This document shows, one piece after another, positions 31 through 33,718 of a DNA stretch of 64,000 nucleotides. The notes below the pieces were generated by a model. That model searched no databases. It had not been told where the DNA came from and saw only the letters and a program-made list of their open reading frames with translations. The stretch comes from Thermoplasmatales archaeon (GTDB taxonomy: Archaea; Thermoplasmatota; E2; DHVEG-1). The translations under genes were made by a program, and so were the position numbers. How positions within the stretch are numbered: the stretch's first letter is position 1; the number at the start of each line of letters is the position of its first letter. The stretch spans positions 32,302-96,301 of the forward strand of contig DAOVGR010000050.1 in the NCBI GenBank assembly GCA_030672305.1, read 5' to 3'.

Positions 31-975
31 CTACCGCTCTCTAGACGCACCAATTACAGTTTTTAAAGTTTGAAATCCTTCTTTTTCAATAGCATTTGCT
101 ACTTCTTCCTGTAGCTTTTTGTCAGGTGTAAGTGCAATTATACTACCACCTAGGCCACCACCCGTAAGTTTTGCACCTATTGCCCCTTGATCTCTTGCTA
201 GTTTAACAAGAAAATCAAGTTCTCTAGATGAAACCTCGATTTGTTGAAGAAGCTTATGATTTTCATTCATTAGTTTACCAAGTTCCCTGTAATCCTCAAT
301 TTTAAGAGCATTTCTAGCTAAATAAGCAATATTCTCTGCTCTATCAAATATTTCCTTGTATTTTTCAGGGTTTTTTTCTCTTCTCTTACGTACACCCGCA
401 ACAGCTGCAGCTGTATCGGCAACCTTACCAGTATTACCCATTACAATTTCAATAGGAGCAGGAATGGAGATTTTATCCATAACCTTATTTTCACCCTTCT
501 CAAACCAAATAAGACCACCAAATGTAGAAGCCGTATTATCTATTCCAGAAGGATTTCCATGATATCCTTTCTCACCTTCAAAAGCAATCTCATTAATCTC
601 TTCATCTGATATATTAAGACTAAAATGTTCAGAAATAGCTCTGGCAATTGCAACACAAGAAGCTGCGCTGGCACCGATTCCACTTGCGCAATATAATGTT
701 CCATCGAGTGTTATCTCTAATCCTTTTTTTGATAAATCTATACCCATTTTTTTCAAAATTCGATTTATTGAATCTTTTTGCTGATCAATTTTTTCTTCTT
801 TATAATTTGGAGTTGCTTTTCTATTGTCAATAAATGACCAACCAGACTTATCAATTGGATTTAGCTTTGCAACAGTATATTTTCCAATTGCAGAAACAAT
901 AGCTGGTACTCCATATACCACAAAATGTTCATTTAATAAAATAGCCTTACCAAAACCAATGCCCTCGCCCGACAT
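31..975 (-). CDS. mvk: Mevalonate kinase (GHMP kinase family)
   Basis: 314 aa. GHMP kinase ATP-binding Gly/Ser-rich loop GNPSGIDNTASTFGG and C-terminal GGGLGGS motif. Overall match to archaeal mevalonate kinase. Confidence 0.8.
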   Translation of the reverse strand: MSGEGIGFGKAILLNEHFVVYGVPAIVSAIGKYTVAKLNPIDKSGWSFIDNRKATPNYKEEKIDQQKDSINRILKKMGIDLSKKGLEITLDGTLYCASGIGASAASCVAIARAISEHFSLNISDEEINEIAFEGEKGYHGNPSGIDNTASTFGGLIWFEKGENKVMDKISIPAPIEIVMGNTGKVADTAAAVAGVRKRREKNPEKYKEIFDRAENIAYLARNALKIEDYRELGKLMNENHKLLQQIEVSSRELDFLVKLARDQGAIGAKLTGGGLGGSIIALTPDKKLQEEVANAIEKEGFQTLKTVIGASRER

Positions 976-1123: not shown

Positions 1124-1759
1124 ATGAGGATAGATAATAATTCTGAAAAGATTTGTTCGATTTCTAAATATTCATTTAAGACCAAATTCAATATATCAAG
1201 GTTTAATTATTTCTGGAAAGCAATTGATTTTATAGCCTGTAAAATAAAGAGATTTGCTATATTATATGAAAATACCTTGTCCAAAGAATATGAAAAAGAA
1301 GGCGAACTGTTTAATATTTCTGAATCAAAAAATATTTTACACATTGGATGTGGTTCATATCCAGTTACAGCAATCAACCTTGCTAAATACAACGGTGGTA
1401 AGGTTGTCGCAATTGACATTGACCCAAGAGCAATAAAACTAGCCACCAAGGTAATTAATAATAAAAAATTGCAGGATAAAATATCTATTAATAAAGGAGA
1501 TGGAAGAAGTTATCCTATAAAAAAATTTGATGCAATTATCATATCAAGCTGTTCAATTCCAAAAATTGATATTTTAAATCATATTTTTAAAACAGCAAAC
1601 ATTAATAGTAAAATTATAGTTAGAGAAATATATGGAGCTAGGAAAGCAGTGGAGGACTGTATAAATCTCCATAAAAATATCGAGATTAAAAAAAGAATTG
1701 GAAATCATCCATTTCCAACATCTAGATGGGAATCGTTTTATTTAATAAAAAATAGTTAA
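1124..1759 (+). CDS. Small Rossmann-fold SAM-dependent methyltransferase-like protein; paralog of 4618-5250
   Basis: 211 aa. Gly-rich nucleotide-binding motif HIGCGSYPVTAINLA followed by an acidic strand VVAIDIDPRAIKLA, which is the methyltransferase motif I/II layout. Shares NISRF, IGCG and GDGxxYPI blocks with ORF 4618-5250. Confidence 0.55.
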   Translation: MRIDNNSEKICSISKYSFKTKFNISRFNYFWKAIDFIACKIKRFAILYENTLSKEYEKEGELFNISESKNILHIGCGSYPVTAINLAKYNGGKVVAIDIDPRAIKLATKVINNKKLQDKISINKGDGRSYPIKKFDAIIISSCSIPKIDILNHIFKTANINSKIIVREIYGARKAVEDCINLHKNIEIKKRIGNHPFPTSRWESFYLIKNS

Positions 1760-2763
1760 TTATTTTTTAACATCTTTTTAAAGTCCGTTAAATCTGTTTT
1801 TCTTGCTTCTGTTAAAGATACTAAAAAGCCTACAAAACCTGTAACTACATCTGTAATAATAAATCCTACAAGAGTAAACACCAGAACCACTTCTTCGCCT
1901 ACTCCAAAAAGTGTTGAAAAAATTATTATAGATGTTAATTCACGAAAACCTAAACCAGCAAAGGTTACAGGAATATAGCCTGCAATATTTGCAACTGGAT
2001 AAAGTAATAAAAAGCTTAGATATGGGATATTTGCTCCTAATGCATAAACAATGATGTATTCTTGAGAAAAAATAATTACCCAAGAAATTAAACCAAGGAA
2101 TAACGGAATAATTAAGCGATTTATTCTAGGAAAATCTTTATAGAATGTATCCGCAAATTTTGAGGATGGGTCTTTAAGTTTCTTTGGAATCAAGTATTTA
2201 ACAAAAAGGTGGAAGAATTTTTTCCCACGTTCTTTCTTAATAAAATAAATTATAATAAATGCTTGGAATGAAATTAAAATTGCAATTATGATAAGGAGTA
2301 TTCTTGTTATTTCAAGTTCTGAAAATTGATCAAGAATAATTAATAATCCCCCAACTATCATAGAATATATTGCAACTTGACGTACTGTTACTTCAATAAA
2401 TGTGTTAACAAACAGTTTACCATATGGTTCCCCGGTTTTTTCTTTCATATATGGAACTCTCATTAACTGTCCAATAAATCCAGGGGTCCAACTGGCATAG
2501 AAATATCCTATTAGAAAACACTTTAATGATTGGAAGTAGCTAATTTTGATTTTTTGCTCTTTTTGTATTAATCGCCATCCATAATTTCTAATCAGTACTC
2601 GTGGAATTGTTAGAGATAATGCTAGTACTATGAAAATTGGATTAATTATTAAGAATGCATTTATAATTTTTCCAACATCTAAATTAAGAATAATTATTAA
2701 TAGTACTATAATTCCTAATAATGGTAGAAATTTTTTTACCTGTTCGAAAATTTCTTTTTTCAA
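1756..2763 (-). CDS. Polytopic membrane protein, UPF0104 / lysyl-phosphatidylglycerol-synthase transmembrane (flippase-like) family
   Basis: 335 aa with 7-8 predicted TM helices. Conserved loop WRLIQKEQKIKISYFQSLKCFLIGYFYASWTPGFIG is typical of the MprF N-terminal flippase-like domain. Paralogous to 2924-3889 and to the N-terminal half of 6817-8397. Confidence 0.6.
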   Translation of the reverse strand: MKKEIFEQVKKFLPLLGIIVLLIIILNLDVGKIINAFLIINPIFIVLALSLTIPRVLIRNYGWRLIQKEQKIKISYFQSLKCFLIGYFYASWTPGFIGQLMRVPYMKEKTGEPYGKLFVNTFIEVTVRQVAIYSMIVGGLLIILDQFSELEITRILLIIIAILISFQAFIIIYFIKKERGKKFFHLFVKYLIPKKLKDPSSKFADTFYKDFPRINRLIIPLFLGLISWVIIFSQEYIIVYALGANIPYLSFLLLYPVANIAGYIPVTFAGLGFRELTSIIIFSTLFGVGEEVVLVFTLVGFIITDVVTGFVGFLVSLTEARKTDLTDFKKMLKNN

Positions 2764-2923
2764 TGAACATGGGGTATCTTATTATCTTTATTTATTGTTG
2801 TGGAAAAATGAAAATTCTTTATTTGCATCTTATAATTAAATCAAGCTTACCAGATACTTGGTTTTTTTTATTAACATCACAATGGAATATCTACTTTTTT
2901 AGGGGAAATTATTAATTGAATAA

Positions 2924-3889
2924 TTGTTACACCTTTCATATTTGATGGAAAAAAATAATCTTAAAAAAGTGGTAAAATTACTCCCTATTATTGGTGTTGC
3001 AATATTCATTTATATTATAAATGACATTGGAGTTGAAAAAATTGCAGACGCTTTTTTTTCAATCCCTATCCAATTTTTTATTCTTGCACTTCTAATTGTT
3101 TTTCTAAGAATATTTGTTTATACTTACAAGTGGAGTTATATCTGTAATAAAATGAAAATAAACATTAAATATTTTGATTTAGTAAAAATCTATTTGATTG
3201 GAGTATTTTATGGGAACCTTACACCTGGTGCACTTGGTTTACATTTAAGAATTTTTTACATGAGAAAAAAATCTAAAGCATCAATTGGAAAATGTCTCGC
3301 AAGCTCACTTATAGATATCGAATTAGCATTAATAACAGGTATTTTTATAGGATTAATTGGCACCATTTATCTCATTAATTTCTATCCTGGACTGTTACCG
3401 TTACTAATACTACTTCTTCTTATCCATGGTACTCTGCTAATTATTTTTATGAAAAAAAGTGGTGGAAGTAAATTTTTTAAGATTTTCATAAGACCTTTAA
3501 TACCTAATAAATATAGAGAAGGAATAGATCAATCAGTTGAATTATTTTATGAGGATATGCCCAGATTTAGAGAAATGCTAATTCCTATTTTATTTGATTT
3601 TATTACATGGGTAATAATTGGAACCCAAGTGTATATCATTGCACAAGCATTCTCTGTAGATATTCCTTATTTAATATTTTTGATGTTGCATACATTATCA
3701 GTTGTTGCATATGGTTTATTACCAATTTCAATAGGAGGATTAGGAGTTAGAGAAGGTATATTTGTGTTTTTATTATTACCATTTGGGGTGGCGGCAGAAG
3801 TTGCTTTTGTTATTTCATTATGTGGCTATATTGTAAAATTGATAATTCCTGCGTTATTTGGGATGTTTTTTTCATTTAAAGAGAAATAA
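2924..3889 (+). CDS. Polytopic membrane protein, UPF0104 / flippase-like family (paralog)
   Basis: 321 aa. Block YKWSYICNKMKINIKYFDLVKIYLIGVFYGNLTPGALG aligns with the same block in 1756-2763 and 6817-8397. Multiple TM helices. Confidence 0.6.
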   Translation: MLHLSYLMEKNNLKKVVKLLPIIGVAIFIYIINDIGVEKIADAFFSIPIQFFILALLIVFLRIFVYTYKWSYICNKMKINIKYFDLVKIYLIGVFYGNLTPGALGLHLRIFYMRKKSKASIGKCLASSLIDIELALITGIFIGLIGTIYLINFYPGLLPLLILLLLIHGTLLIIFMKKSGGSKFFKIFIRPLIPNKYREGIDQSVELFYEDMPRFREMLIPILFDFITWVIIGTQVYIIAQAFSVDIPYLIFLMLHTLSVVAYGLLPISIGGLGVREGIFVFLLLPFGVAAEVAFVISLCGYIVKLIIPALFGMFFSFKEK

Positions 3890-3923
3890 AGAGTTATTTT
3901 AAGAGAAAAATCTAGGTGATAAT

Positions 3924-4643
3924 GTGAAAGATGCTGATTTTATTAAATCTAAAAATGAAACAGATTCACATTATGAGTTAGTAAAAAAGTATTTTAGGAA
4001 AAGTGCTGAAGATAAGAAAAGATTTTACAGTTTTAAAAGTAAAGAGGAAATAGAAAAAGAGATAAAAAAACGAAGTATGTGGAAGATATACACATCAATA
4101 TTAGATGAAATTTTACAAAAAGATGCGGAAATCACAAGTGTTATTGATATTGCATGTGGAATGGGGAATTTTACCATGGAGCTTGCTAAACGTAATAATT
4201 ATAAAAGAATAGTAGGAGTTGATTTTCTAAAAGAAACCTTTAATATTGCTCGTAAAACAGAAAATATTTTTAGAAATATTTCCTTTCTGGAGGGAAATTT
4301 ATTAAATCTACCATTTACTGATAGGAGTTTTGATTTCACAATATGCTTAAACACTTTACATCACATATATAAGAATGATTTTTACAAAGCAGTCAATGAG
4401 CTAACAAGAATAACTAAACACTATCTTATGTTAGAAATAAGGAATAAAAATTACATTTTGATGCCTTGGATAAATAAAACTGTTTTACAAAAAGTATATA
4501 GAGATTTACCAATTTATTGTAGCTCAGTTTCAGATTTAAATGATTTAATAGAAAAAAATGGATTTAAACTTAAAATTATTAGACGAAATAGTTCATTAAC
4601 TTGGACAAGTTGGCGTCTTGTACTTGTTTATGAAAGAAATTAA
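3924..4643 (+). CDS. Class I SAM-dependent methyltransferase
   Basis: 239 aa. Motif I VIDIACGMGNFTMELA, motif II RIVGVDF, post-I acidic residue and motif IV FDFTICLNTLHH. Confidence 0.7.
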   Translation: MKDADFIKSKNETDSHYELVKKYFRKSAEDKKRFYSFKSKEEIEKEIKKRSMWKIYTSILDEILQKDAEITSVIDIACGMGNFTMELAKRNNYKRIVGVDFLKETFNIARKTENIFRNISFLEGNLLNLPFTDRSFDFTICLNTLHHIYKNDFYKAVNELTRITKHYLMLEIRNKNYILMPWINKTVLQKVYRDLPIYCSSVSDLNDLIEKNGFKLKIIRRNSSLTWTSWRLVLVYERN

Positions 4644-5250
4644 CAATGGAGGCTTCTTCTTGGAAGTAAATAAAAATAAAAATATTTCAAGATTCTTAAT
4701 TAACAGTCGAAGAATCCTATCATGCTATTATTATAATTTTTTAGAATTACTTGCTGTTAAAACTAAATTATTTCAAAAATTATTAATGGAATGGAGAAGA
4801 CCAGTTTTTCTTAATGAAATAAAAATGGCCAATATTAAAAAAAATGATAAGGTGCTACTTATTGGCTGTGGTATATTTCCATCTGAAACAATGCTAATTG
4901 CAGAGCAAACAGGAGTCGACGTAGTAGGTATTGATAACTCTCCTCAAGCTGTAAAAATAGCAAGAAAATATGTAAAGAAAAAAGGACTTTCAAAAAATAT
5001 AAAAATTGAATATGGGGATGGAAAAGATTACCCAATCAATGATTTTGATGTAATTTTTATAGCGATTAATGTTTGGCCAATTGATTTTGTGTTAAAACAT
5101 ATTTTAAAAAATATGAAATTAGATGGAAGAGTTATGTGTAAAAGTTTAAAAAACGATATTATAAATGTTATTGAAAAAGAAAAATTTGATATTGTTTCAA
5201 AATTAGAAAATCCACAAACACAATCGTTTTTATTAGTAAAGAAAAAGTAA
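4618..5250 (+). CDS. Small Rossmann-fold methyltransferase-like protein; paralog of 1124-1759
   Basis: 210 aa. Motifs VLLIGCGIFPSETMLIA, VVGIDNSPQAVKIA and YGDGKDYPI mirror those of ORF 1124-1759. The 5-prime end overlaps the preceding gene by 26 nt, so the true start may be an internal Met. Confidence 0.55.
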   Translation: MYLFMKEINNGGFFLEVNKNKNISRFLINSRRILSCYYYNFLELLAVKTKLFQKLLMEWRRPVFLNEIKMANIKKNDKVLLIGCGIFPSETMLIAEQTGVDVVGIDNSPQAVKIARKYVKKKGLSKNIKIEYGDGKDYPINDFDVIFIAINVWPIDFVLKHILKNMKLDGRVMCKSLKNDIINVIEKEKFDIVSKLENPQTQSFLLVKKK

Positions 5251-5258
5251 TTTATTTT

Positions 5259-6713
5259 CTAAAGCAAATGGATTAATTGGTTAATTCTTGCTTTCATTTT
5301 GTATAAATCTCTATTCTTGAATATTTTCAGCATCTGTGTAGTTATATATCTTGGTCTAAGATAAAATCTTTTCATAGCCTCTCTATAAAATTCATCGAGC
5401 TCGTCCCTTGTGAAATTTCCAAGACCCTTTCGTAAATCTGCGACAATTGTGTAACCATCTCTTACATTGATTTTTCCATTTTTAACTGCCTCATCCCATA
5501 TGTCTGAACCATATTTATATGTTAAAATTGTAAACAATGCAACATCAAGAGGGAGGGAACAAGCAAACTTAATTGTTTTTTCGATATGTTCTTTTGTCTC
5601 AATTGGAGCTCCTAATATAAAGGTCCCAACAGTGAAAAAATCCATTTCACTACTAAGATTGATTGCTTTTCTAATTTGATCGGTAGTCGCATTCTTATTG
5701 TAAAAATCTAAAACATCCTGATTTGCAGATTCCAATCCATAATATAGATGTTTTACACCTGCATTTTTCATCTTAGAGTAAAGCTTCCTATTTGCAGTAT
5801 CAACCCTTGCACCCTGTACATATATCTCAATATCAGTTCCAATTTTTATCAACTTATCAAGTATTTCATTAGCCCGTTGTTCATCTGCAAGAAAAGTATC
5901 ATCAACTATCATAACAGAATCATAAGATTCATTAATTTTTTTTATCTCATTTACAACATTTTCAACAGAGCGTTGTCTAAAGATCTTAAAACCTAATGTG
6001 TTTCGTGTACAGAATCGACAATTAAAGGGACATCCCCTACCTGTTATCATAGAAGTGAATCTTGGTTTAAAATTTGATTTACTTGTTTTTCCATACTCAT
6101 ATTTTTCAACAAGATGACGAGCAGGAAAAGGAATTGAATCAAGATTTTCAATTATTGTTGCTGGTTTTCCCTTTTTGATTACGTCATTTTTTCTATAATA
6201 GATACCATGTATTTCAGATAGTTTCTTTCTCCCTTCTATTGATTCTACAATTTCCTTAATTACTTGTTCGCCATCACCTTCTACACTTATGTCAGCAGAG
6301 GGTATTTCATTTAGAGATTTTTTTGGTTGTATACTACAATGGGGACCACCAATTATAATTGGAATATCAGATTCAATTTCCTTAATATATTTCGCTACCT
6401 TTGCTGATTCTTTATAAGCATATGTATATTTGCCTCCATGCATTGTTTCTTCATAAGATGATGAAAATACACTTATTCCAACAGCATCTGTTGTTGACAG
6501 CTCTTTATTAAGAGATTTTAACGGATAACTTTCAGCTAGAAAATCTATTAATTCAACAGTATGACCTGCATTTTCTAAAACACTTCCAAGATACAAAAGA
6601 CCTAGAGGGGGGTGATATGATGATATTTTTTGTGGTTTATCTATTTTTGATGTAAAAATATAGTCCGGCGGAATTTGTAATAACAAGAATTTCATTTGAT
6701 AAATCCAAATCAT
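5259..6713 (-). CDS. B12-binding-domain radical SAM enzyme (class B radical SAM family)
   Basis: 484 aa. N-terminal cobalamin-binding-like domain PLGLLYLGSVLENAGHTVELID then a radical SAM core with CxxxCxxC (GRGCPFNCRFC). Confidence 0.8.
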   Translation of the reverse strand: MIWIYQMKFLLLQIPPDYIFTSKIDKPQKISSYHPPLGLLYLGSVLENAGHTVELIDFLAESYPLKSLNKELSTTDAVGISVFSSSYEETMHGGKYTYAYKESAKVAKYIKEIESDIPIIIGGPHCSIQPKKSLNEIPSADISVEGDGEQVIKEIVESIEGRKKLSEIHGIYYRKNDVIKKGKPATIIENLDSIPFPARHLVEKYEYGKTSKSNFKPRFTSMITGRGCPFNCRFCTRNTLGFKIFRQRSVENVVNEIKKINESYDSVMIVDDTFLADEQRANEILDKLIKIGTDIEIYVQGARVDTANRKLYSKMKNAGVKHLYYGLESANQDVLDFYNKNATTDQIRKAINLSSEMDFFTVGTFILGAPIETKEHIEKTIKFACSLPLDVALFTILTYKYGSDIWDEAVKNGKINVRDGYTIVADLRKGLGNFTRDELDEFYREAMKRFYLRPRYITTQMLKIFKNRDLYKMKARINQLIHLL

Positions 6714-6816
6714 ATTAGTATTGATATATTATTTGAATAAATTTTTGTTAAAATTATTAATCTTATAACAATTAAACAATTTAGATAAATACCAAATGTA
6801 ATTTAACTTTGCACAT

Positions 6817-8397
6817 ATGGACTATAAAAAATTGTTACCAATCATTGGAATAATTATTCTATTATACATAATAGTAACTCTAGATTTACAGGAAATATAT
6901 ACAGTTTTTTCAAATATTCATCCAATATATTCTCTCATCTCATTTTTTGCTATTCTTCCCGTTGTCTTAATGACAAATATTCAATGGCAAATACTGCTAA
7001 GAAAACAACGGATTAAAGTTAGCTTTCTTTATTCATTAAAAAACATATTCATTGGTTATTTTTATGGATTTATTTCACCAGGTGGGATAGGTGCTTATAC
7101 CAGAGCTTTATATCTTGAACATGAAAGTAAAGCTCCTCTTGGAAAATGTCTATCCAATATAATTATTTTCAACACAATTGATTATCTATCACTACTTTTA
7201 CTTGGAGCAATTGGTGCAATTTTTCTTAGTAGTATATATCCCCATCTTTTTGCAGTCATCATTGCTGTTATTTTTGTTATTGTTACTCTGCTTCTATTTT
7301 TTCTTAAAAAAGAAAAATCTAAAAACATATTTTTAAAAATAATTCAAACAAGAATATTTAGTTCTGTTAAGGACAGACTAACAGAATCTCTGGATTCTTT
7401 TTATGAAGATTTACCTCGTTTTAAAGACGTACTAATACCATTTGGAATTTCAATTATAGGTTGGATTGTAAGATTTACAGAACTTTACTTTATTTCAAAA
7501 CTTTTCTTAATTGATGTATCTTTTATTTATTTTATACTAATAATTGCTGTAGCAAATGTAATTGCCTCAATTCCAATAACAATATATGGGCTTGGAACAA
7601 GAGAAGCCTCGTTAATTACTATGTTTTTATTTTTTAATGTAATTCCTGAGAAAGTATTAGGTCTTTCATTGTTTTGGTTTACAATAATTTGGTTTTCCCC
7701 TAGTATATTAGGAGCTATTATAACTTATATTGAAACAAAGAAGCTAAGTATGTCATTTTTGAATGAAAAAACTGTAGAAAAGTTTTCAAATTACATGAAA
7801 AGATATCCTGAGCTTTACAGAAATCTTACTGATGTTGTTAAGAAAAATATCCCAAATAAGATTACTAAGCCAATCATTGTGGATTTAGGTGTCGGACCCG
7901 GACTACTCTCACAAGAAATAATTAAGCAGACACCCAATGCAAAAATTATAGGTATTGATCCATCAGGTAAAATGCTTAATTTGGCAAATAAAAATGTAAA
8001 AAAAGATGTGTTTCAAGCAATGCTAGGAGCCTCTGAAAACATTCCACTTGAAAAAAACACTGTGGATATTATAGTAAGCAGATTCAGCCTTACATACTGG
8101 AAGAAACCAAGAGATAGTTTTAGAGAAATCAATAGAATTTTAAAACCGGGTGGTAAGCTGATATTAGAAGCATTGAATAATAAATTTTCAAAATGGAAAT
8201 TATTTGCTATAAAGACACATATGATTTTTAATTCAGCAGGATTAGATGTTATAAGATATCATTCTGAGGCATTTAAAACAGCATATAATATCCAGCAGGT
8301 TGAACATTTGTTAAAAAATTCTGGATTCAAAATAATTTATAAAGAAGCTAAGAAAAATGACTGGAAATATATTCTAGTTTCAGGAAAGGGGAAATAA
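6817..8397 (+). CDS. Fusion protein: N-terminal UPF0104/flippase-like membrane domain plus C-terminal class I SAM methyltransferase
   Basis: 526 aa. Residues 1-300 are polytopic with the conserved WQILLRKQRIKVSFLYSLKNIFIGYFYGFISPGGIG block. C-terminal residues carry methyltransferase motif I VDLGVGPGLLSQEI, IIGIDPS and ILKPGGKLILE. Confidence 0.65.
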   Translation: MDYKKLLPIIGIIILLYIIVTLDLQEIYTVFSNIHPIYSLISFFAILPVVLMTNIQWQILLRKQRIKVSFLYSLKNIFIGYFYGFISPGGIGAYTRALYLEHESKAPLGKCLSNIIIFNTIDYLSLLLLGAIGAIFLSSIYPHLFAVIIAVIFVIVTLLLFFLKKEKSKNIFLKIIQTRIFSSVKDRLTESLDSFYEDLPRFKDVLIPFGISIIGWIVRFTELYFISKLFLIDVSFIYFILIIAVANVIASIPITIYGLGTREASLITMFLFFNVIPEKVLGLSLFWFTIIWFSPSILGAIITYIETKKLSMSFLNEKTVEKFSNYMKRYPELYRNLTDVVKKNIPNKITKPIIVDLGVGPGLLSQEIIKQTPNAKIIGIDPSGKMLNLANKNVKKDVFQAMLGASENIPLEKNTVDIIVSRFSLTYWKKPRDSFREINRILKPGGKLILEALNNKFSKWKLFAIKTHMIFNSAGLDVIRYHSEAFKTAYNIQQVEHLLKNSGFKIIYKEAKKNDWKYILVSGKGK

Positions 8398-8452
8398 CAA
8401 CTTTTAAATACATATGAAAATAATATTTATTATATAATATGGGGAAGGTTAA

Positions 8453-9745
8453 ATGAATACCTATTATAAAAAAAATTTAGCGTTATTCTTAGTTTTATTA
8501 TTTCTCATATTATGCCTTTCACCAATTGTAAATAGCATTGAAATAACAGAATTAAAAAAGTTTGTATATGAATCTTCCGATGAAGTAATAGAACTTGATC
8601 TTCTTCGTGGAGAACATTATCTATACATTAATGCAACTAAAAATACAGACCAATTTAATGTAAAATACGCTTTTCCAGCTGAATTAAACTATCAATTTCC
8701 TATAATAATGGAAATATTGAATGATACTACAGCTGAAATTCTAGAATACAGAATAGAAAATGAAGCAAATGAGCCTAATAAAATTGTAAATTTCACGATT
8801 GGTACAATGGATAAAGATGATAGCGCTCTGATTCATTTTAATTTCTTTGTACTTGTTATTAATCAAGATTTTTCCAATCTACCAAAGAAGGTAAAGATTC
8901 CGAAAAAGGATGAACTTCCTCCTGAAACATTAAAGTGGCTTTCATCAACAAAAGCTGTACAAAAAAATAGAATACTTATAAGACTTAGGGCAAGACAAAT
9001 GAAAATTTTAACAAATAATGTTTTAAAAATAGCAAGAAGAATTGCCTTATTTTGTAGATTCCATAGATATCCTTTATTTTTTATCCAATATAAGTTTGGA
9101 TTATATAGATCTCAAGATGCTTTTACATCGCTTTTAATAAATGGAGAATGTCCAGGTAGATCACATCTAGGATGTGCATTATTTAGGGCCAATAATATTC
9201 CAGCTCGAGTATTATTGGCTAACCGGGATTATCCTTTCTGGTATGAAATGCATTATATGACAGAGTACTATCTTCCGGATTATGGATGGATATTAACTGA
9301 AGTACATAAAGGTAAAACACCGTATGAAACAAAATATCAGATTATTCTTAGGATATGTCATCCGGAGGATGAAAACAATACTCAAACAGATTTTATCAAT
9401 AAGAAAATGAAAGGTATCGAAAGATGGTTCTGGATTGATAATGAATTTATTATACCATATTATAAAGATCTAGTTGAGGGTAGTAGATGCTGTATGTTTA
9501 GAGAAAACGAGGTTTTTACAGATAATATTTCTGGAGAAGATGCAATTAATATTACAAGAAATGTTTTTCATAAATATGAATACTACCTTGGAATGAATTT
9601 AGCTGGCGATAACTTGGAATACTTTCAAAATGCAACCAATTACCAATTTCAAGCAATTAGCCAATTAAAGGGTTCAGATAATGTATCTGGTTACATAAAT
9701 TATCTAAACAAAGCAAATGAAGAATACGATGAAATAATAATTTAG
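8453..9745 (+). CDS. Secreted transglutaminase-like (papain-fold Cys-His-Asp) protein
   Basis: 430 aa with an N-terminal signal peptide. Catalytic-core-like block GECPGRSHLGCALFRANNIPARVL. His/acidic block HYMTEYYLPDYGWILTE matches the transglutaminase-like superfamily. Confidence 0.6.
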   Translation: MNTYYKKNLALFLVLLFLILCLSPIVNSIEITELKKFVYESSDEVIELDLLRGEHYLYINATKNTDQFNVKYAFPAELNYQFPIIMEILNDTTAEILEYRIENEANEPNKIVNFTIGTMDKDDSALIHFNFFVLVINQDFSNLPKKVKIPKKDELPPETLKWLSSTKAVQKNRILIRLRARQMKILTNNVLKIARRIALFCRFHRYPLFFIQYKFGLYRSQDAFTSLLINGECPGRSHLGCALFRANNIPARVLLANRDYPFWYEMHYMTEYYLPDYGWILTEVHKGKTPYETKYQIILRICHPEDENNTQTDFINKKMKGIERWFWIDNEFIIPYYKDLVEGSRCCMFRENEVFTDNISGEDAINITRNVFHKYEYYLGMNLAGDNLEYFQNATNYQFQAISQLKGSDNVSGYINYLNKANEEYDEIII

Positions 9746-9753
9746 AGGTTGGG

Positions 9754-10473
9754 ATGAGCAATAAAAAATCTTCTGGAAATATTAAGGGATTTTTTTTAAT
9801 TTCAATTATTCTATTATTTGTTTTTTCACTTGGTTTTTTTCCATTAATATTTGCTTGGAAAACCCTACTAATTTTTATATCATTTAACCAACTATGGCAT
9901 TTTTTAATATTACCATTTTTTATCTATATTGGGATAATTATCACGATTTTCTTTCAAGTCTTAATCTCAGGTATTGTAATTCATGTTTTTAACATCAAAT
10001 ATAAACCCGGTTTATTCAAGTATTCAATAAATGATAAAATGGCTTTTAGATGGATAGTTGTATGTGCATTATACACTCCAATAAGAAAAATACTTGAGAT
10101 TTTCCCAATGGGAATAAAAAATACATACTATAGATTTCTAGGGATGAAACTTGGAGAAAATAGTCTTGTCGGGGGAGTAATTAAAGACCCATGTTTAACT
10201 GATATTGGAGATAATGTGACAATGGGAGAATATGCAATTATCTATGGACATATTCATAACTATGAAAAAGGAACAATTACAATGGATAGTGTTAAAATCG
10301 GAAACAACTGTATTATTGGAGCCGGGTCTATTATCATGCCTGGAGCAATCCTTGAAGATGATGTGAAGCTTGCTGCTGGGGCAGTTGTTACGAAAGGTCA
10401 GATTTTGAAAAAAGGAAAAACCTATGGTGGTATTCCCGCAAAAGAGATAAAAAAGAGAAAAAAGAAACAGTAG
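9754..10473 (+). CDS. Membrane-anchored hexapeptide-repeat (LbH) acyl/acetyltransferase
   Basis: 239 aa. Two N-terminal TM helices then a left-handed beta-helix hexapeptide repeat region (IGDNVTMGEYAIIYGHIH...IGNNCIIGAGSIIMPGAILEDDVKLAAGAVV). Confidence 0.65.
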   Translation: MSNKKSSGNIKGFFLISIILLFVFSLGFFPLIFAWKTLLIFISFNQLWHFLILPFFIYIGIIITIFFQVLISGIVIHVFNIKYKPGLFKYSINDKMAFRWIVVCALYTPIRKILEIFPMGIKNTYYRFLGMKLGENSLVGGVIKDPCLTDIGDNVTMGEYAIIYGHIHNYEKGTITMDSVKIGNNCIIGAGSIIMPGAILEDDVKLAAGAVVTKGQILKKGKTYGGIPAKEIKKRKKKQ

Positions 10474-10509: not shown

Positions 10510-11073
10510 ATGAAAAACCAAATTAGAAAACAGCTTATTGATAAAAGAAAAAATCTATCCTCAACAGAAGTTTTAGAAAAGAGCAGAATAATTAAAAATA
10601 AACTTTTTAATATGAAAGATTTCAAACATGCATCAACAATTCTATTTTACATATCTTACGAAAATGAAGTATATACCCATGAAATGATAAAAGAACAATT
10701 ACAAAACAAAAAAACTATTGTTGTTCCAATAGCTGATATTAAAAAGAGATGTTTAATTTTATCAAAATTAGAAAATTGGAATGACCTTGCTGTTGGTGCT
10801 TATAATATTCTTGAACCTAAAAAGGAAAGAATAATAGAAGTTAATATTGAAAGTATAGGTTTGATAATTATACCAGGTGTAGGATTTGACATAAAAGGTC
10901 GTCGTATAGGTCATGGAAAAGGTTACTATGATAATCTCTTAAATAATTCTAAAAGAGCATTGCATATTGGTTTATCATTTGAATTTCAAATTGTAAATCT
11001 TATTCCTACTGAAAATCATGACATACCAGTAGATAAAATTGTGACTGAAAAAAGAATAATAGACTGTAAATAA
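10510..11073 (+). CDS. 5-formyltetrahydrofolate cyclo-ligase (MTHFS family)
   Basis: 187 aa. Signature IIIPGVGFDIKGRRIGHGKGYYDNLL at the C-terminal third. Confidence 0.75.
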   Translation: MKNQIRKQLIDKRKNLSSTEVLEKSRIIKNKLFNMKDFKHASTILFYISYENEVYTHEMIKEQLQNKKTIVVPIADIKKRCLILSKLENWNDLAVGAYNILEPKKERIIEVNIESIGLIIIPGVGFDIKGRRIGHGKGYYDNLLNNSKRALHIGLSFEFQIVNLIPTENHDIPVDKIVTEKRIIDCK

Positions 11074-17534: not shown

Positions 17535-20500
17535 ATGTCGAAAAGACTAATTGTGTACATTATTCTATCTATTATTCTATTATCTATATTTATTCCATAT
17601 AATTCCACAGCAGAAGAAGCACCGTGGTGGAATAAAAATTGGTCTTTCAGACAAGAAATTATAATTCCGATAGATACAAGTGATGAATATGCTAAATATC
17701 AACCAATCGATATCCATATAAGTTTCAATAATACATGTTGGGCAAAAAAAGAAGATGAACATTCAATAAGAGTAATCTATCAGTACGGAGAAAGATTAAT
17801 TGAACTTGAATCTCAGATATATGATTTAGAATTTGATAACACTGAGCATCTTAATTCATGCAATCTTGTTTTTCTTATACCTGCGCAGGCAAATGGCGAA
17901 GAGAAATACTTTGTCTATTATGATGATGAGGCGAAATCTGGACCAGATTACCAAAAACATGTTGAAATTGGCGAATCTTATTATCAATACGAACCTATCC
18001 AAGGTCTAGGATTTGAATCATCATATTATAAAATCACAGAGGGAGAGGAAATTATTTATGCAGTCAATAAAGAAGGAACAGTCTTAGGTGACAAAATATC
18101 ACAGCAGGTCACAAGATTAAAGAAAGGTGCAAAAGACATTTTACCACATAATAGCGATCAAATTGCATCATTTGATTTTAATTATTGGTGGTTTAAGGAT
18201 GGAGATTGGTGTAGTATAAGTACATCAGACCGGTTTATTTCAAAACAATTATTTGTAAATGGAAATCTAATGGTTAAATTTGGAATAGTCAGTGAATCTG
18301 AAAATGCGCTTCTCAGATCAACAGTAATTTATAAATATTATTACTGTCCAACTGAGGATAAACGATTATACACTCATGTAAAGCATGAGGTCATAGGTTA
18401 TCCTCTTCCACGAGGCGAAGAAATTGATGTAGCCTATATCATACTTTCTTGTGGCGGGATAAAGAGTAGTATCATTGATGAGTTGGACTTTGGTGAGATA
18501 CCTCCATATTTGCATTTTTATAGTGATGAAGAAAGAGTAAAGTCACATAATTTTGATCAATATCCTGATTATAGTAATTGGCAAGCAATAATACATAAAT
18601 CTGATGATTATGATCTTGGAAGTTCTCCTTGGATATCTGTTGACTATGGTGAAACAGGTAAAGCGCATGGAATAATCTTAGATTCTACCAACATCTTAAA
18701 ATCTGGTACAGATGAGCGTGATGGAATTGAGCTGCAATTATATGAAGCAAAACAAATTCAGTATCCAGGATTAGAAGGAAGTTTTGCCCAGTTATACATT
18801 ATGAGAAATGCTTTTGAACAAGGTGAACCACAAGATGAAATTATTCCTGAGAATTATGTTGTTGAGTTTAATGCAGAATATTTCACAACTGAGAATGGCG
18901 GTTATCCAGTTGTAGAAAAAGAATCAAGTATTTATCAAAAGTTAATTAGCTATCAACCTGAAAATGATGATGTAGTAGATGAAGAGGAGGACGCAGAAAA
19001 ATATAATTTAATTGTGTATCCACATCTACCGCGATCATTACTATTTAAATTTAGGCTCTCCGCTTTACTTCTTAAAGCACCACAGATCACTGCTGAACTA
19101 GTACATAATGAGGAATCAATTGGATATGGAAAACCACATAGAGTGCCTATCACAGAACAGGCTAAAATTGATTGGAAGAATATCTCATTTTTCCGGAAAA
19201 TGACTTTTACAAATATTCCTTCAGGAAAATATGTTGTTAAGATATGGCTGGAGAATGCAATATTTAGCGATGAACGGGAGTTCATAGGTTATAAAATTGT
19301 TGAATTAAACAAAGATGCTGAAGCCCGAATATTTTGTAAACATCAAGGAAAAATCAGTATATCTGTAATAAATCAAGATAAAAATGGAATTGAAAATGTA
19401 GAAATATTTCTGCTAGACGATGATACAATAATTTCAGAAGTTGAAAGTGACAATAATGGAAAAGCGGTATTAAAAGCTCCTTGCGGTCTTGGTAGCAAGT
19501 ATACTTTAAATACAACCTATAAAGGATTTTTTATAGATAAGCAAAATATTAGATTGGGAAGATTAAGACAATTTATACCAAAGAGAGTTTCATTAAGCTT
19601 TGACACTCATGATTTAATGATAAATGTTTTTGATTCAGAAGGGAAAGCCCCTGAATTTAGTGTAGATCTTAGTCTAACCAGTGATGAAATGCAGGTTCCT
19701 GTTGTAATAAAACCAAATTCTACAACTGATGGAACATATAATTTCAAAGCACTTTTTCCAGCCTATTATTTTTTAAAAATAAACTATGAATTATTTGAAA
19801 TTATGGAAAAAATAAATATACCTGATTTATCTCTATTTGAAATTAAATTATATGATTTGAAAGCTTTTATCAAAGATGATTGGAATTTGCCACCAGAGGC
19901 ACCATTAGATGTTTCTCTTACAAGTGAAGATTTTGAAAAAACTGTTGTGTTAAATGCAAAGAAATTATCTTCTGAAGAGTATCTGTTTTCAAATATTTAT
20001 CCAGGAAACTACACAATAAAAGTAAGTTACAAGTCTTATAAAAGAGAGGAATCTATTAAGATTCCCTATAGAGGGGATGGAGAAACACAAATTGTTTTTT
20101 CTGCATTATTTAATATTACAACTAAGGTTCTTAATGCTCGTGGAGATCCTTTGAAAGATTCAAAGGTTCTATTTACTAGAGGAGAAAAAGAAATTGAAGG
20201 AATTTCTAATGATGATGGAAATGTTTTATTTTCTATTCCTCCAGGAAGTTATAATAGTCAGATATACTCAAATGGAGAATTGATTGCTCAAAGAAGGGTT
20301 GATGTGTTTTATGATAAGGATTACTCAATTGTAACTACAAATGAGCCTATTATTCCTTTTATAGTAATTGCTTTAGCAATACTTTTTCTTGCTTTTGCTG
20401 TAGTTTTTGCATATAAAAAGAAAAATATTCTTCTTTTCTTGAAAATATTAGCTATTGTTCTTGCAGTAATTGCTATTGTTTCTCCTTGGTGGACAATGCA

Positions 20501-20996
20501 AGGAAATACTTCTGATCCTCATTTAGAAACTTCAACAAAATTATTCATGATGCCTACAGAAATGACTACCTTAACTTCAAATAACAATTTAACTGCTGGA
20601 GAGGCATCAATACTTGATGAAAAATATACATTTGTTGTTGATCTTTTACCTTTGAGTATTATTGCTGGTATTTTGTGTTTATTGGTACCAATTATTTTAA
20701 AACGCTACATAAAAGGAAAACTTTCATTTTTGATTTTACTTCTTGTGTTAATTATTTTTATTGGCACAATTGTTATCTTTTCTTATGCAACGTCTGAGAT
20801 GGCAAATGCAACAGTTGGGAGTCTTTACGGAAGTGGTAATTTAGATATTAGCATTCCTGGAGAAAATAACTATGAAGTCATGTCATGCAGTTGGGGCCCT
20901 GATCTTAGTTTTTATCTATTTTTAAGCTCAATAATCATTTTAATAATAGTCCTTTGGTTGAACATTAAAAATAGAGATTATTTAATGTCTAAATAA
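17535..20996 (+). CDS. Large cell-surface protein: signal peptide, DUF2341-like N-terminal module, several carboxypeptidase-regulatory-like beta-sandwich repeats, C-terminal multi-TM anchor
   Basis: 1153 aa. N-terminal hydrophobic signal, WWNKNWSFRQEIIIPI motif and repeated Ig/transthyretin-like segments (e.g. NVEIFLLDDDTIISEVESDNNGKAVLKAPCG; VLFTRGEKEIEGISNDDGNVLFSIPPGSYNSQIY). The last 250 aa contain 5-6 hydrophobic helices. Confidence 0.6.
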   Translation: MSKRLIVYIILSIILLSIFIPYNSTAEEAPWWNKNWSFRQEIIIPIDTSDEYAKYQPIDIHISFNNTCWAKKEDEHSIRVIYQYGERLIELESQIYDLEFDNTEHLNSCNLVFLIPAQANGEEKYFVYYDDEAKSGPDYQKHVEIGESYYQYEPIQGLGFESSYYKITEGEEIIYAVNKEGTVLGDKISQQVTRLKKGAKDILPHNSDQIASFDFNYWWFKDGDWCSISTSDRFISKQLFVNGNLMVKFGIVSESENALLRSTVIYKYYYCPTEDKRLYTHVKHEVIGYPLPRGEEIDVAYIILSCGGIKSSIIDELDFGEIPPYLHFYSDEERVKSHNFDQYPDYSNWQAIIHKSDDYDLGSSPWISVDYGETGKAHGIILDSTNILKSGTDERDGIELQLYEAKQIQYPGLEGSFAQLYIMRNAFEQGEPQDEIIPENYVVEFNAEYFTTENGGYPVVEKESSIYQKLISYQPENDDVVDEEEDAEKYNLIVYPHLPRSLLFKFRLSALLLKAPQITAELVHNEESIGYGKPHRVPITEQAKIDWKNISFFRKMTFTNIPSGKYVVKIWLENAIFSDEREFIGYKIVELNKDAEARIFCKHQGKISISVINQDKNGIENVEIFLLDDDTIISEVESDNNGKAVLKAPCGLGSKYTLNTTYKGFFIDKQNIRLGRLRQFIPKRVSLSFDTHDLMINVFDSEGKAPEFSVDLSLTSDEMQVPVVIKPNSTTDGTYNFKALFPAYYFLKINYELFEIMEKINIPDLSLFEIKLYDLKAFIKDDWNLPPEAPLDVSLTSEDFEKTVVLNAKKLSSEEYLFSNIYPGNYTIKVSYKSYKREESIKIPYRGDGETQIVFSALFNITTKVLNARGDPLKDSKVLFTRGEKEIEGISNDDGNVLFSIPPGSYNSQIYSNGELIAQRRVDVFYDKDYSIVTTNEPIIPFIVIALAILFLAFAVVFAYKKKNILLFLKILAIVLAVIAIVSPWWTMQGNTSDPHLETSTKLFMMPTEMTTLTSNNNLTAGEASILDEKYTFVVDLLPLSIIAGILCLLVPIILKRYIKGKLSFLILLLVLIIFIGTIVIFSYATSEMANATVGSLYGSGNLDISIPGENNYEVMSCSWGPDLSFYLFLSSIIILIIVLWLNIKNRDYLMSK

Positions 20997-30465: not shown

Positions 30466-30551
30466 TTATATATAGATAAAATTATATATTGATAGGATTA
30501 ACATAAATTGGAGGAAATAATCTGAATAAAAAATATCTTTGTGTATTTATT

Positions 30552-32597: not shown

Positions 32598-33718
32598 TCT
32601 TCCTTCCATTTTGTAAGAGCAAGCCCTATTATGAAAAATATCGCTGCAAAAATTAAAACAAAAATGGTATTAATAGTTGCATCTGCCGTTTCAAGTTTTA
32701 TCATACTATCACGCAAACCTTCATTTACGTAATACAATGGAAGAACTCTTGCAACTAATTGCAGGAACTCTGGCATCATATCCAATTCAAAAAATGTTCC
32801 AGCAAGAAACATCATTGGAAAAGTAACAGCTCCACCTGCCATGCCAGCAGATTCTTCATCTTTTACAAAACGACCAATCATCATCCCAAGGCCTGTGAAA
32901 AGAAAGCTTGTTGCAATTATGATTACTATCATCAATGCAGTAACATGTACATGAAGTCCATAAATTAAGACACCAACAGCAATAATAATCACAGTTGAAA
33001 GAAAAGATAAAAAGAGCTGAAAGAGCATTTTTGAAATAATCCATTCGGATCTTGTAATTGGTGTAGTCAATAATTTTCTAAGGATTCCATCTTTTCGATA
33101 TTTTGTATTTCTCTCAAGGCTTCCATAAATACACGTCTGCATTATTGTAAAACCAATCATACCTGGAATAAAAAAATCAATATATGAAAATTCTCCACTA
33201 ATTGTCGTAACATCCTGAAGACCAATAATTTCTCTACCACCAGAAACATTCATATTTGTGTTTATAACAAAATATGATATTATATCCCTGATCTGTTGAT
33301 TAGTGGTTTGTTCGCTTTGATCAAAATAGAACATTAAATTTGAAGTTTCAGTCGAATTAGGGTTTTGTTGGGACATAATTATTGCTTCACTAAAATCTTC
33401 AGGAATTACAAGTACCCTTTTAATGTCATTTTCATCCATATACGATTTAATATCTTCGTCTTTTGGTACATTTTTAATATTTATATAACCAGTAGATTCC
33501 AGTCCTTGGAGAAAACCTTCAGTTATACCAAATTCATCATCTTCATCTAAATTTTGGACATAAAGATCAAACTCTACCTCACCTATGCCAGAAAAGATTG
33601 CGCCAAAAATTAAAATAAGCATTACAGGAAAAGCAAGAGTCCAAAACAGTGTAGCTCTGCTACGAAAGAATGATTTCAAATCGGTTTTAAAGCCTGCGAT
33701 TAAAATTTCTGGTCTCAT
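32594..33718 (-). CDS. ABC-2 family transporter permease
   Basis: 374 aa. N-terminal TM then a large extracytoplasmic domain and a C-terminal 5-TM bundle typical of ABC-2 permeases. The 5-prime end overlaps or abuts the ATPase gene. Confidence 0.7.
   Translation of the reverse strand: MRPEILIAGFKTDLKSFFRSRATLFWTLAFPVMLILIFGAIFSGIGEVEFDLYVQNLDEDDEFGITEGFLQGLESTGYINIKNVPKDEDIKSYMDENDIKRVLVIPEDFSEAIIMSQQNPNSTETSNLMFYFDQSEQTTNQQIRDIISYFVINTNMNVSGGREIIGLQDVTTISGEFSYIDFFIPGMIGFTIMQTCIYGSLERNTKYRKDGILRKLLTTPITRSEWIISKMLFQLFLSFLSTVIIIAVGVLIYGLHVHVTALMIVIIIATSFLFTGLGMMIGRFVKDEESAGMAGGAVTFPMMFLAGTFFELDMMPEFLQLVARVLPLYYVNEGLRDSMIKLETADATINTIFVLIFAAIFFIIGLALTKWKED

Follow-up and report, generated by a model that had tools for sequence, protein, structure and literature searches.

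Nine closely packed genes (positions 1124-10473) in a 64,000-nt stretch of DNA from a Thermoplasmatales archaeon (GenBank assembly GCA_030672305.1, contig DAOVGR010000050.1, positions 32,302 to 96,301; hereafter the window, meaning the whole stretch) encode three paralogous flippase-like membrane proteins of the PplT/UPF0104 family alongside several S-adenosylmethionine (SAM)-dependent enzymes, and homologs of these genes lie together, fused or split, in other archaeal genomes. Two of the enzymes, which an earlier sequence-only reading of this DNA had counted among four methyltransferase domains, have their closest specific relatives in nicotianamine synthase (NAS) and CntL, and genes of this NAS-like family also stand beside PplT genes in ferrous-iron (Feo) operons. 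The locus represents a conserved module of Marine Benthic Group D (MBG-D)/Thermoprofundales-type Thermoplasmatota, which, as we tentatively propose, would use SAM in up to three ways on a membrane-anchored molecule and then expose that molecule at the outer face. Modification of a membrane lipid or envelope component coupled to translocation, the general function already suggested by the sequence-only reading, is still the best description of the locus, which comprises the following genes and boundaries.

1124..1759, plus strand: sMT1, short (211-aa) NAS/CntL-like SAM-dependent enzyme, predicted 3-amino-3-carboxypropyl transferase (profile and fold similarity)
1756..2763, minus strand: FL1, stand-alone PplT/UPF0104 (MprF-flippase-like) polytopic membrane protein, accessory paralog (PF03706, TIGR00374)
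2924..3889, plus strand: FL2, second stand-alone PplT/UPF0104 paralog (PF03706)
3924..4643, plus strand: MT, stand-alone class I SAM methyltransferase, cassette B (Methyltransf_25/Methyltransf_11)
4618..5250, plus strand: sMT2, second short NAS/CntL-like paralog, cassette B (CntL is its best NCBIfam match)
5259..6713, minus strand: cobalamin (B12)-binding (class B) radical SAM enzyme of an uncharacterized subfamily, cassette B (B12-binding and Radical_SAM)
6817..8397, plus strand: FL3-MT, flippase-like domain (residues ~1-310) with a C-terminal class I methyltransferase (~335-526), core anchor gene
8453..9745, plus strand: secreted or N-terminally anchored transglutaminase-like (papain-fold) protein (Transglut_core)
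9754..10473, plus strand: membrane-anchored left-handed beta-helix (hexapeptide) acyltransferase, 239 aa (Hexapep)
31..975, minus strand: mevalonate kinase, left boundary, not counted in the module (TIGR00549, 250 bits versus a cut-off of 163)
10510..11073, plus strand: 5-formyltetrahydrofolate cyclo-ligase, right boundary (TIGR02727, 166 bits versus a cut-off of 85)

Open reading frame mapping, together with the Pfam and NCBIfam model scans against curated cut-offs from which all module domain calls were made, placed the nine genes and assigned their domain families just as the sequence-only reading had done. Adjacent genes are spaced by anything from a 4-nt overlap to 160 nt. The cyclo-ligase, which is followed in the window by PurP and threonyl-tRNA synthetase (ThrRS) genes, is a conserved neighbor whose membership in the module is uncertain.

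The small Rossmann proteins sMT1 and sMT2 are paralogs (32% identity, E 6e-24), and both exceed generic Pfam methyltransferase cut-offs. Their specific affinities point elsewhere: a profile of 18 family members, compared with PDB sequences, aligned best to CntL (62 bits, 5e-16), followed by the archaeal thermonicotianamine synthase MtNAS (40 bits, 3e-9) and then by the best true methyltransferase (35 bits, 8e-8). The sMT1 motif ILHIGCGSYPVT resembles the CntL segment LLVGSGAYPMT, to which the same comparison aligned the family motif ILHIGCGSYPLT. Many relatives of the two proteins carry a PF03059 NAS match, which for some is the sole precomputed Pfam match. An AlphaFold model (predicted local distance difference test, pLDDT, 89.9) returned MtNAS as the top Foldseek hit and the one with the highest template-modeling (TM) score, 0.71 over the whole chain (~210 columns); this fold alone is not decisive between NAS and methyltransferase identity. 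Across 37 small-protein sequences, position 35 is acidic (Asp or Glu) in all 37, Glu occupies position 59 in 35, and position 56 is Tyr or Phe, with Phe in the sMT2 clade; the alignment marks these as candidate catalytic positions. NAS catalysis requires a Glu and a Tyr (E81/Y107 in MtNAS and E77/Y106 in AtNAS1; PMC10248798). sMT2, whose true start is probably the ATG at 4630, was included in the family alignments. On these grounds the small proteins probably perform aminocarboxypropyl transfer. Because their best specific relatives are NAS and CntL, only two of the four methyltransferase domains claimed previously — the C terminus of the fusion and the product of 3924-4643 — are clear methyltransferases, and since the small proteins fit a NAS/CntL-like family, stepwise methylation by four methyltransferases is not the best chemistry for the locus.

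The three flippase-like proteins match their family model over the full length and above the curated cut-off, so that their earlier assignment to UPF0104 stands: PF03706 (LPG_synthase_TM; cut-off 33.4 bits) gave 131 bits for FL1 (8e-38), 132.8 bits for FL2 (2e-38) and 141.8 bits for FL3 (4e-41), and TIGR00374 ('flippase-like domain'; cut-off 43.2) gave 95.5, 82.6 and 91.7 bits, respectively. Pairwise identities are 31-34% (FL1 is 34% identical to FL2 and 31% to FL3), and the block W..I/L...K.KI....F..L/VK..LIG.FY....PG..G, common to the three, is directly recognizable in each sequence. A survey preprint found more than two PplT/UPF0104 copies in only 1.6% of the genomes having any; because such multiplicity is rare, three genes within 7 kb are more than would be expected by chance. 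In FL3-MT, the flippase-like part occupies the N-terminal ~300 residues, and the C terminus matches Methyltransf_11 (73.3 bits) and a second methyltransferase model (64.7 bits), with the motif VDLGVGPG of the SAM-binding GxGxG type; compared with PDB sequences, this domain found generic relatives only. The architecture is common to >300 full-length homologs. Lysine/arginine-rich loops and tail suggest, on a crude hydropathy reading, that the methyltransferase domain is cytoplasmic. Methyltransferase-PplT fusions are listed in the preprint, without study, as a rare architecture.

What is known of PplT partners favors lipid-linked cargo. In the sources consulted, the partners characterized or proposed handle lipid-linked groups that are assembled at the cytoplasmic face, namely aminoacyl-phosphatidylglycerol (PG) for MprF, glucosaminyl-PG (GlcN-PG) for GpgSDF and dolichyl-phosphate-hexose for AglD, and the flipping activity of GpgF itself is still unverified (PMC12713373). 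Archaeal UPF0104 proteins (arCOG00899) have been tied to N-glycosylation by genomic context, and AglD itself has a UPF0104 domain. In a study of Haloferax iron starvation, a UPF0104 protein was merely among the induced proteins.

To place the locus in its lineage, one genome per species was scanned with an alignment of the fusion protein, yielding 49 archaeal loci onto which the window proteins were mapped by tblastn and hidden Markov models (HMMs); the related sequences all come from metagenomes, and partner counts cover the surroundings of each locus. Every genome match to the fusion alignment was a Thermoplasmatota metagenome-assembled genome. The window fusion protein shares 82% identity with one from 'Thermoplasmatales archaeon SG8-52-3', and we take SG8-52 names to denote archaea of the MBG-D/Thermoprofundales kind. 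Flippase-like and methyltransferase parts occurred together in 31 of the 49 loci, fused in 21 and split into adjacent genes in 10. A transglutaminase-like gene adjoins this unit in 20 of the 31 and a hexapeptide gene in 21, while 13 have a small Rossmann gene within 4 kb; three further short contigs with the flippase-like part only also have a small Rossmann gene. Three gene orders were seen, with the small gene upstream and co-directional, downstream on the other strand, or inserted between the split flippase-like and methyltransferase genes (L028, L036, L043), and in L051 the gene between an FL1-like gene and a fusion gene encodes a NAS-like protein with just 28% identity to sMT1. Housekeeping flanks differ from those of the window in L025-L030, L043 and L046. 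The adjacency of the module genes is thus more than chance, and the co-location recurs in other genomes as the sequence-only reading had supposed. Its appeal to the neighboring mevalonate kinase gene fared less well: this flank is conserved only within MBG-D-type loci and amounts to synteny within one order, not independent evidence.

Conservation is uneven across the nine genes. FL1 orthologs were found in about a dozen loci (L001, L003-L007, L017, L051, L054, L056, L058-L060), and FL2, the least conserved part, occurs outside the window in L001 and L003 only. The locus in the window is composed of a core — the fusion, the transglutaminase-like and hexapeptide genes, joined in most cases by a small Rossmann gene and frequently by FL1 — and a cassette of the radical SAM, sMT2 and MT genes (cassette B). 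We regard these as two units because the radical SAM cassette is also found without the core genes. The single module envisaged earlier is not one fixed unit, given that cassette B is separable, FL2 is confined to the window and two loci, and the window-type radical SAM gene is missing from most core loci.

Seven FL-only loci (L027, L031-L033, L035, L037, L038) carry a flippase-like homolog without a methyltransferase, followed by a secreted ~1000-aa protein (family c13). The latter was considered as a transglutaminase on account of the reminiscent motif 'NGWCGE...DHVWRE' and is kept as a lead at most, with an hhalign E-value of 0.72 and an immunoglobulin-type (Ig) domain as its only Pfam match. 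Upstream, those loci carry genuine Transglut_core genes (c23) and a gene for a LuxE-like acyl-protein synthetase.

Within cassette B, the stand-alone MT scores 68.7 bits to Methyltransf_25 and 62.9 bits to Methyltransf_11, and comparison with PDB sequences retrieved generic methyltransferases only; it is 28% identical to a methyltransferase that adjoins a NAS-like gene in L137. The B12-radical SAM protein is well supported in its two domains (PF02310 B12-binding, 58.6 bits versus 32.1; PF04055 Radical_SAM, 93.4 bits versus 29.5) and carries the motif CPFNCRFC (C228-x3-C232-x2-C235), with all three cysteines invariant in five homologs. All 25 of its listed B12-radical SAM equivalog matches fall below cut-off; the best of them, HpnJ, reaches 180 bits against a cut-off of 578, and because this is so far short the window protein is not an HpnJ ortholog. 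Its best PDB sequence matches are an unnamed radical SAM core protein (9ccb, 2.6e-15) and TokK. A metagenome scan found homologs at 41-75% identity in 80 loci. The closest orthologs (64-75% identity) share a fixed arrangement: cyclo-ligase (minus), radical SAM (plus), sMT2 (minus), MT (minus), sMT1 (minus), sometimes FL1, and then mevalonate kinase. The fusion, transglutaminase-like and hexapeptide genes are usually not interposed (L053, L055, L056, L058-L060), and L054 has all of them. sMT2 adjoins the radical SAM orthologs in L053-L060, MT accompanies the pair in L053-L056 and L058-L060, and the cyclo-ligase is directly adjacent and divergent in L052, L053, L055, L056, L059, L060, L100, L103 and L123.

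We also considered the radical SAM protein as a methylase of butanetriol/pentanetriol backbones or of glycerol dialkyl glycerol tetraether (GDGT) chains. The literature searched names no backbone-methylase gene, the enzyme is accessory, and no model assigns it; the candidate was retained only as part of a rival explanation, considered below. In two loci (L002, L017), a ~410-aa ATP-grasp protein and a different B12-radical SAM protein, 28-30% identical to that of the window, hold the window enzyme's position, between a distant B12-radical SAM gene and the fusion gene.

The two remaining core proteins are less easily assigned to a reaction. The transglutaminase-like protein (Transglut_core, 33.3 bits versus 23) begins with a hydrophobic segment, either signal or anchor; a beta-sandwich in its N-terminal part precedes the papain-fold core, and a helical bundle forms the C terminus. 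Its AlphaFold2 model (pLDDT 87.6) has one good fold match, the uncharacterized putative cysteine protease 3ISR (6e-13), with animal transglutaminases matching weakly, and its profile found no match among PDB sequences. The window protein carries C233 and H267, with Glu replacing Asp; orthologs retain His and Asp, and C241 is invariant. The hexapeptide protein (Hexapep, 44.6 bits versus 27) falls short of every equivalog cut-off. Its best NCBIfam match is the membrane C-terminal domain of Pls/PosA (63.9 bits, 9e-18, versus a cut-off of 423), followed by maltose O-acetyltransferase, and its profile aligns to the MAT/LacA maltose/galactoside acetyltransferases (3e-13), with the invariant H166 in YGHIH lying over the MAT 'ATHP' segment, which we take to hold the catalytic histidine. 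A crude hydropathy and positive-inside reading gives the protein three N-terminal hydrophobic segments.

Relatives of the small proteins connect the family both to metal uptake and to prenyl-lipid genes, the former a link absent from the sequence-only reading. An exhaustive HMMER search returned 929 cluster representatives at E <=1e-10, of which 102 reach <=1e-30; almost all span 180-220 residues, and each represents one protein cluster at 50% identity. Contexts were read at individual loci. Two representatives (P0500, P0440) have the NAS-like domain fused to FeoA. In L134 (747-4774), overlapping genes encode a NAS-like protein (186 aa), a PplT protein (321 aa), a NAS-like+FeoA fusion and FeoB, and the same four-gene order recurs in L146 (6001-10220), where the first NAS-like protein is only 42% identical to its counterpart in L134. 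Neither locus has the MBG-D housekeeping flanks; their PplT proteins resemble FL1-3 only remotely, and their NAS-like proteins share 26-34% identity with sMT1/sMT2. Because of these two Feo operons, the pairing of NAS-like and PplT genes recurs well outside the MBG-D module. Related arrangements comprise two NAS-like domains fused to FeoA, followed by FeoB (L132/L133; L132 8001-11603), and FeoA-FeoB-NAS-like (L147, 1148-3769); like the two four-gene operons, they lie on unrelated metagenomic contigs, the G+C content of the whole set being 44-62%. Elsewhere, a 250-aa NAS-family protein (P0491) is encoded divergently from a Fur-family regulator gene (L138 5575-6753; L139 537-1715). The literature searched contained no description of a ferrous-iron-linked arrangement of NAS-like, PplT, FeoA and FeoB genes.

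On the prenyl-lipid side, NAS-like genes adjoin genes for UbiA proteins resembling digeranylgeranylglyceryl phosphate synthase (DGGGPS), PaaK-like adenylating enzymes, a ~435-aa family, GT28-like glycosyltransferases and paralogs of the window B12-radical SAM enzyme (41-56% identity), while weaker sMT2-like genes adjoin distant radical SAM paralogs and UbiA genes. A recurrent cluster of this kind (L061, L062, L076, L078, L092; L137, L141, L144) comprises a short NAS-like gene, a DGGGPS-like UbiA gene, one or two PaaK/F390-synthetase-like genes, several B12-radical SAM paralogs and a GT28-like gene. The ~435-aa family in the cluster has no Pfam match and is 38-52% identical between loci.

Gene content, homologies and co-location are what the analysis establishes. 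From these relationships we infer, as the likeliest single reading but with less than even confidence, a scheme in which the chemical steps, the lipid acceptor, the direction of transport and any metal binding are all predictions. At the cytoplasmic face, sMT1 and sMT2 would transfer one or two 3-amino-3-carboxypropyl groups from SAM to an amine of an isoprenoid ether-lipid head group (on archaeol or a GDGT). The product would then be methylated by the class I methyltransferases, one of which is joined to a flippase-like domain much as the synthase domain is in MprF; the membrane-tethered hexapeptide transferase may acylate the head group; and in some genomes the B12-radical SAM enzyme would add an optional change, for which C-methylation is a guess. 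The PplT/MprF-type proteins would bring the completed zwitterionic head group to the outer leaflet, where the secreted transglutaminase-like protein might bind or process it. Because it would be nicotianamine-like, the head group may bind metal ions, which fits the Feo and Fur contexts. We favor a membrane-bound substrate in view of the PplT-fused methyltransferase and the hydrophobic N-terminal segments of the acyltransferase. The genomic context supports a lipid: radical SAM paralogs and sMT2-like genes stand beside UbiA, GT28-like and PaaK-like genes, and the window encodes, besides mevalonate kinase, a polyprenyl diphosphate synthase and the tetraether lipid synthase Tes (39019-40557, minus strand; 561 bits versus a cut-off of 450, with radical SAM and HMPTM zinc ribbon domains). 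Given Tes, the host is predicted to make membrane-spanning GDGT lipids. More broadly, NAS-like and PplT pairs might make membrane-anchored, nicotianamine-like 'chelating lipids', that is, aminocarboxypropylated aminolipid head groups on the outer leaflet, which in some prokaryotes would supply ferrous iron to FeoB and in MBG-D, built on ether or tetraether lipids, would be further methylated, acylated and altered by B12-radical SAM chemistry; we consider this generalization doubtful.

Several observations weigh against the proposed head-group module. The family models are equivocal about the small proteins: against the Pfam NAS cut-off of 27.1 bits, sMT1 scores a marginal 28.2 and sMT2 falls below at 20.8, and CntL (NF033601), although the best NCBIfam match of both, is reached with 59.5 and 44.2 bits, far under its cut-off of 350. 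Gene content varies, with nine fusion genes (L010-L019) lacking any partner nearby, about ten loci in which the core of fused or split flippase-methyltransferase, transglutaminase-like and hexapeptide genes has no NAS-like gene within 10 kb (for example L025, L026, L029 and L046), and cassette B occurring between its flanks without the core. The canonical nucleophile, C233 in the window transglutaminase-like protein, is Asn in 13 of 17 orthologs; the protein may bind rather than catalyze, or use another residue. The topology of the hexapeptide protein is ambiguous, and three membrane segments would put its catalytic domain outside, away from acyl-CoA. No metal-related gene lies in the window module itself, the host lineage is uncultured, and the characterized NAS/CntL enzymes all work on soluble amino acids, giving soluble chelators.

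The last point speaks for a soluble metallophore, in which the NAS-like pair would combine SAM with an amino acid to give a nicotianamine- or opine-like chelator, the methyltransferases, acyltransferase and B12-radical SAM enzyme would tailor it, and PplT would export it. The fusion of small-protein relatives to FeoA and their position beside FeoB or a Fur regulator gene fit this explanation as well, and the two NAS-like genes and PplT of L134 and L146 would form a complete make-and-export set. Yet we know of no PplT/UPF0104 protein with a soluble cargo, all characterized or proposed cargoes that we found being lipid-linked, and a soluble product needs neither the fused methyltransferase nor the acyltransferase anchor. 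The prenyltransferases in the isoprenoid-type contexts of relatives also speak against it. Compared with a Cnt-type opine metallophore operon, the nine module proteins include no CntM-type opine dehydrogenase domain, no dedicated MFS/EamA exporter and no importer or other uptake transporter; a ZIP transporter lies 28 kb away. A soluble metallophore is thus rather unlikely. If the four Rossmann enzymes and a B12-radical SAM methylase instead carried out stepwise methylation, for example yielding N-methylated head groups, methylated GDGT chains or butanetriol/pentanetriol backbones, the generic methyltransferase matches of the small proteins and the presence of Tes in the window would be accommodated, and there is precedent in the B12-radical SAM enzymes Gmm, Cgm and Pgm, which methylate archaeal lipids (bioRxiv 10.1101/2025.10.20.683597). 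Against it, the small proteins are eight orders of magnitude nearer to CntL than to any methyltransferase by profile and have relatives in Feo/Fur contexts, while the window radical SAM enzyme has no established kinship to Gmm or Cgm, lies far under cut-off even in its best NCBIfam matches, and is absent from most core loci. We give this chemistry little credence.

A surface glycan seems to us similarly improbable. Here the flippase-like proteins would move dolichyl-phosphate-linked sugars, the SAM enzymes and acyltransferase would decorate a lipid-linked glycan for S-layer or envelope glycoproteins, and the transglutaminase-like protein would act on the envelope. Methylation and acetylation of archaeal N-glycan sugars on a lipid carrier are known, the arCOG00899 context and AglD link UPF0104 to N-glycosylation, and a gene of NAD-dependent sugar epimerase type lies near some FL-only loci. 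However, neither the window module nor the conserved core of ~20 loci contains a glycosyltransferase, oligosaccharyltransferase or sugar-nucleotide gene, glycan decoration is not known to involve NAS-like chemistry, and the Feo/Fur contexts do not fit. Least probable, and in our estimation scarcely credible, is that the genes share no function and are neighbors through inherited synteny, from mevalonate kinase to ThrRS/PurP, within one archaeal order. Most full-set loci do belong to one lineage with the same housekeeping flanks, and cassette B and the core can be apart; but the association outlasts rearrangement, strand inversion, fusion and fission of the flippase-like and methyltransferase parts, and relocation from the flanks (L025-L030, L043, L046), and the NAS-like and PplT pairing appears in two operons that lack MBG-D flanks (L134, L146).

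The proposed head-group module shares with MprF and with synthase-deacetylase-flippase operons the logic of head-group modification coupled to a PplT flippase, but belongs to neither group. MprF likewise fuses a PF03706/PplT domain to a cytoplasmic lipid head-group enzyme, and its product gains amine character and goes to the outer leaflet; here, by contrast, the fused enzyme is a class I SAM methyltransferase rather than a tRNA-dependent DUF2156 synthase, and the host has ether lipids and tetraethers. Membership in the MprF family itself was rejected, with no DUF2156 synthase domain found, NF033480 scores of 21 bits (FL1) and 16 bits (FL2) against a cut-off of 600, and no match at E <=0.01 for the fusion. 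GpgSDF, which makes GlcN-PG in P. aeruginosa, and HexSDF of C. difficile resemble the module in encoding head-group tailoring enzymes with a stand-alone UPF0104 protein (PMC12713373), whereas the window module has neither a glycosyltransferase nor a deacetylase and instead combines SAM-based chemistry and three flippase-like paralogs with transglutaminase-like and membrane acyltransferase proteins. AglD offers an archaeal fusion of a cytoplasmic enzyme with a PplT domain, whose predicted role is to flip a lipid-linked moiety that is used outside the cell; its enzyme is an N-terminal GT2 glycosyltransferase, in contrast to the C-terminal methyltransferase found here, which has no adjacent glycosylation genes.

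MtNAS, which makes thermonicotianamine, and CntL, of the staphylopine, pseudopaline and yersinopine pathways, provide the best profile matches of the small proteins, share the GxGxxPxT motif after strand 1, and fit the metal-homeostasis contexts of small-protein relatives, but at the N terminus the window proteins fall short of them by 60-90 residues, and their partner is a lipid-flippase-like protein. The proposed logic is also that of the betaine-lipid (diacylglyceryl-trimethylhomoserine, DGTS) pathway, in which BtaA transfers the aminocarboxypropyl group of SAM to a lipid and the class I enzyme BtaB then N-methylates it. BtaA belongs to the DUF3419 family and alkylates a hydroxyl, and the pathway has no flippase; in the Pfam scan at E <=0.01, no module protein gave a DUF3419-type match. 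With the hopanoid genes hpnJ and hpnL, too, one lipid head-group pathway unites a B12-radical SAM enzyme with a membrane protein of UPF0104 type; the window module differs in having neither a glycosyltransferase nor a deacetylase. This analogy was rejected because the scores lie far under cut-off (HpnJ, 180 versus 578 bits; HpnL, 37-43 bits for FL2, at 43, and FL3, versus 196), and to our knowledge archaea do not make hopanoids. The match of the hexapeptide protein to the C-terminal left-handed beta-helix domains of Pls/PosA, an epsilon-poly-L-lysine synthetase, spans both the hydrophobic region and the beta-helix, but the 239-aa protein is a stand-alone unit, with neither an adenylation nor a thiolation domain, and aligns about equally well to maltose/galactoside O-acetyltransferases. 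As the sequence-only reading had suspected, the system appears undescribed: the literature searched contained no description of the module or of the NAS-like-PplT pairing, and nothing relevant connecting NAS or aminocarboxypropyl groups with archaeal membrane lipids.

MBG-D/Thermoprofundales are among the most abundant archaea of marine sediments, yet they lack cultured members, and their polar lipids have not been characterized. The head-group module predicts mass shifts of +101.048, +14.016 and +42.011 Da that could be searched for in sediment lipidomes and might provide a lineage-specific biomarker. It would also give the PplT/UPF0104 family a new kind of enzyme partner, one performing SAM-dependent alkyl transfer rather than aminoacylation or glycosylation. 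In the NAS-like-PplT-FeoA/FeoB operons, membrane-displayed nicotianamine-type chelators or PplT-mediated export may be at work, and either, if true, would be new for both families; membrane-anchored chelators would, moreover, be more than a variant of PplT-coupled head-group modification. Finally, the roughly one thousand cluster representatives at E <=1e-10, which where named are called 'methyltransferase' or 'precorrin-6B methylase', may be aminocarboxypropyl transferases.

The surroundings of the module yielded a number of further observations. The window has a G+C content of ~30%, and tRNA and Rfam scans of it returned no matches. A conserved gene run (c16, c14, c10, c11, c6) precedes mevalonate kinase in L001-L022; it includes a UbiD-like decarboxylase, recognized by reading one sequence, and the run may represent an archaeal mevalonate pathway (phosphomevalonate dehydratase and anhydromevalonate-phosphate decarboxylase), as judged from the sequences. 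Secreted peptidases are frequent neighbors (c1 and c5 in L001-L046; d4 in L118-L131): c1 appears papain-like (C1) and c5 a HELGH zincin, from one sequence read each, and d4 is a C10 peptidase with an inhibitor_I69 prodomain by Pfam. Such neighbors fit the protein-degrading lifestyle proposed for these archaea. Farther along the window, an IS701-family transposase gene (42875-44248, minus strand; 309 bits versus a cut-off of 150) sits between the hydrogenase maturation genes hypD (40885-41967) and hypF (44654-46846). Two large paralogous right-handed beta-helix (NosD-like) proteins, followed on the opposite strand by an ABC-2 permease and an ATPase, are encoded at 28381-34803, and a 1153-aa protein encoded at 17535-20996 (plus strand) has CarboxypepD_reg and Y_Y_Y as its sole domain matches.

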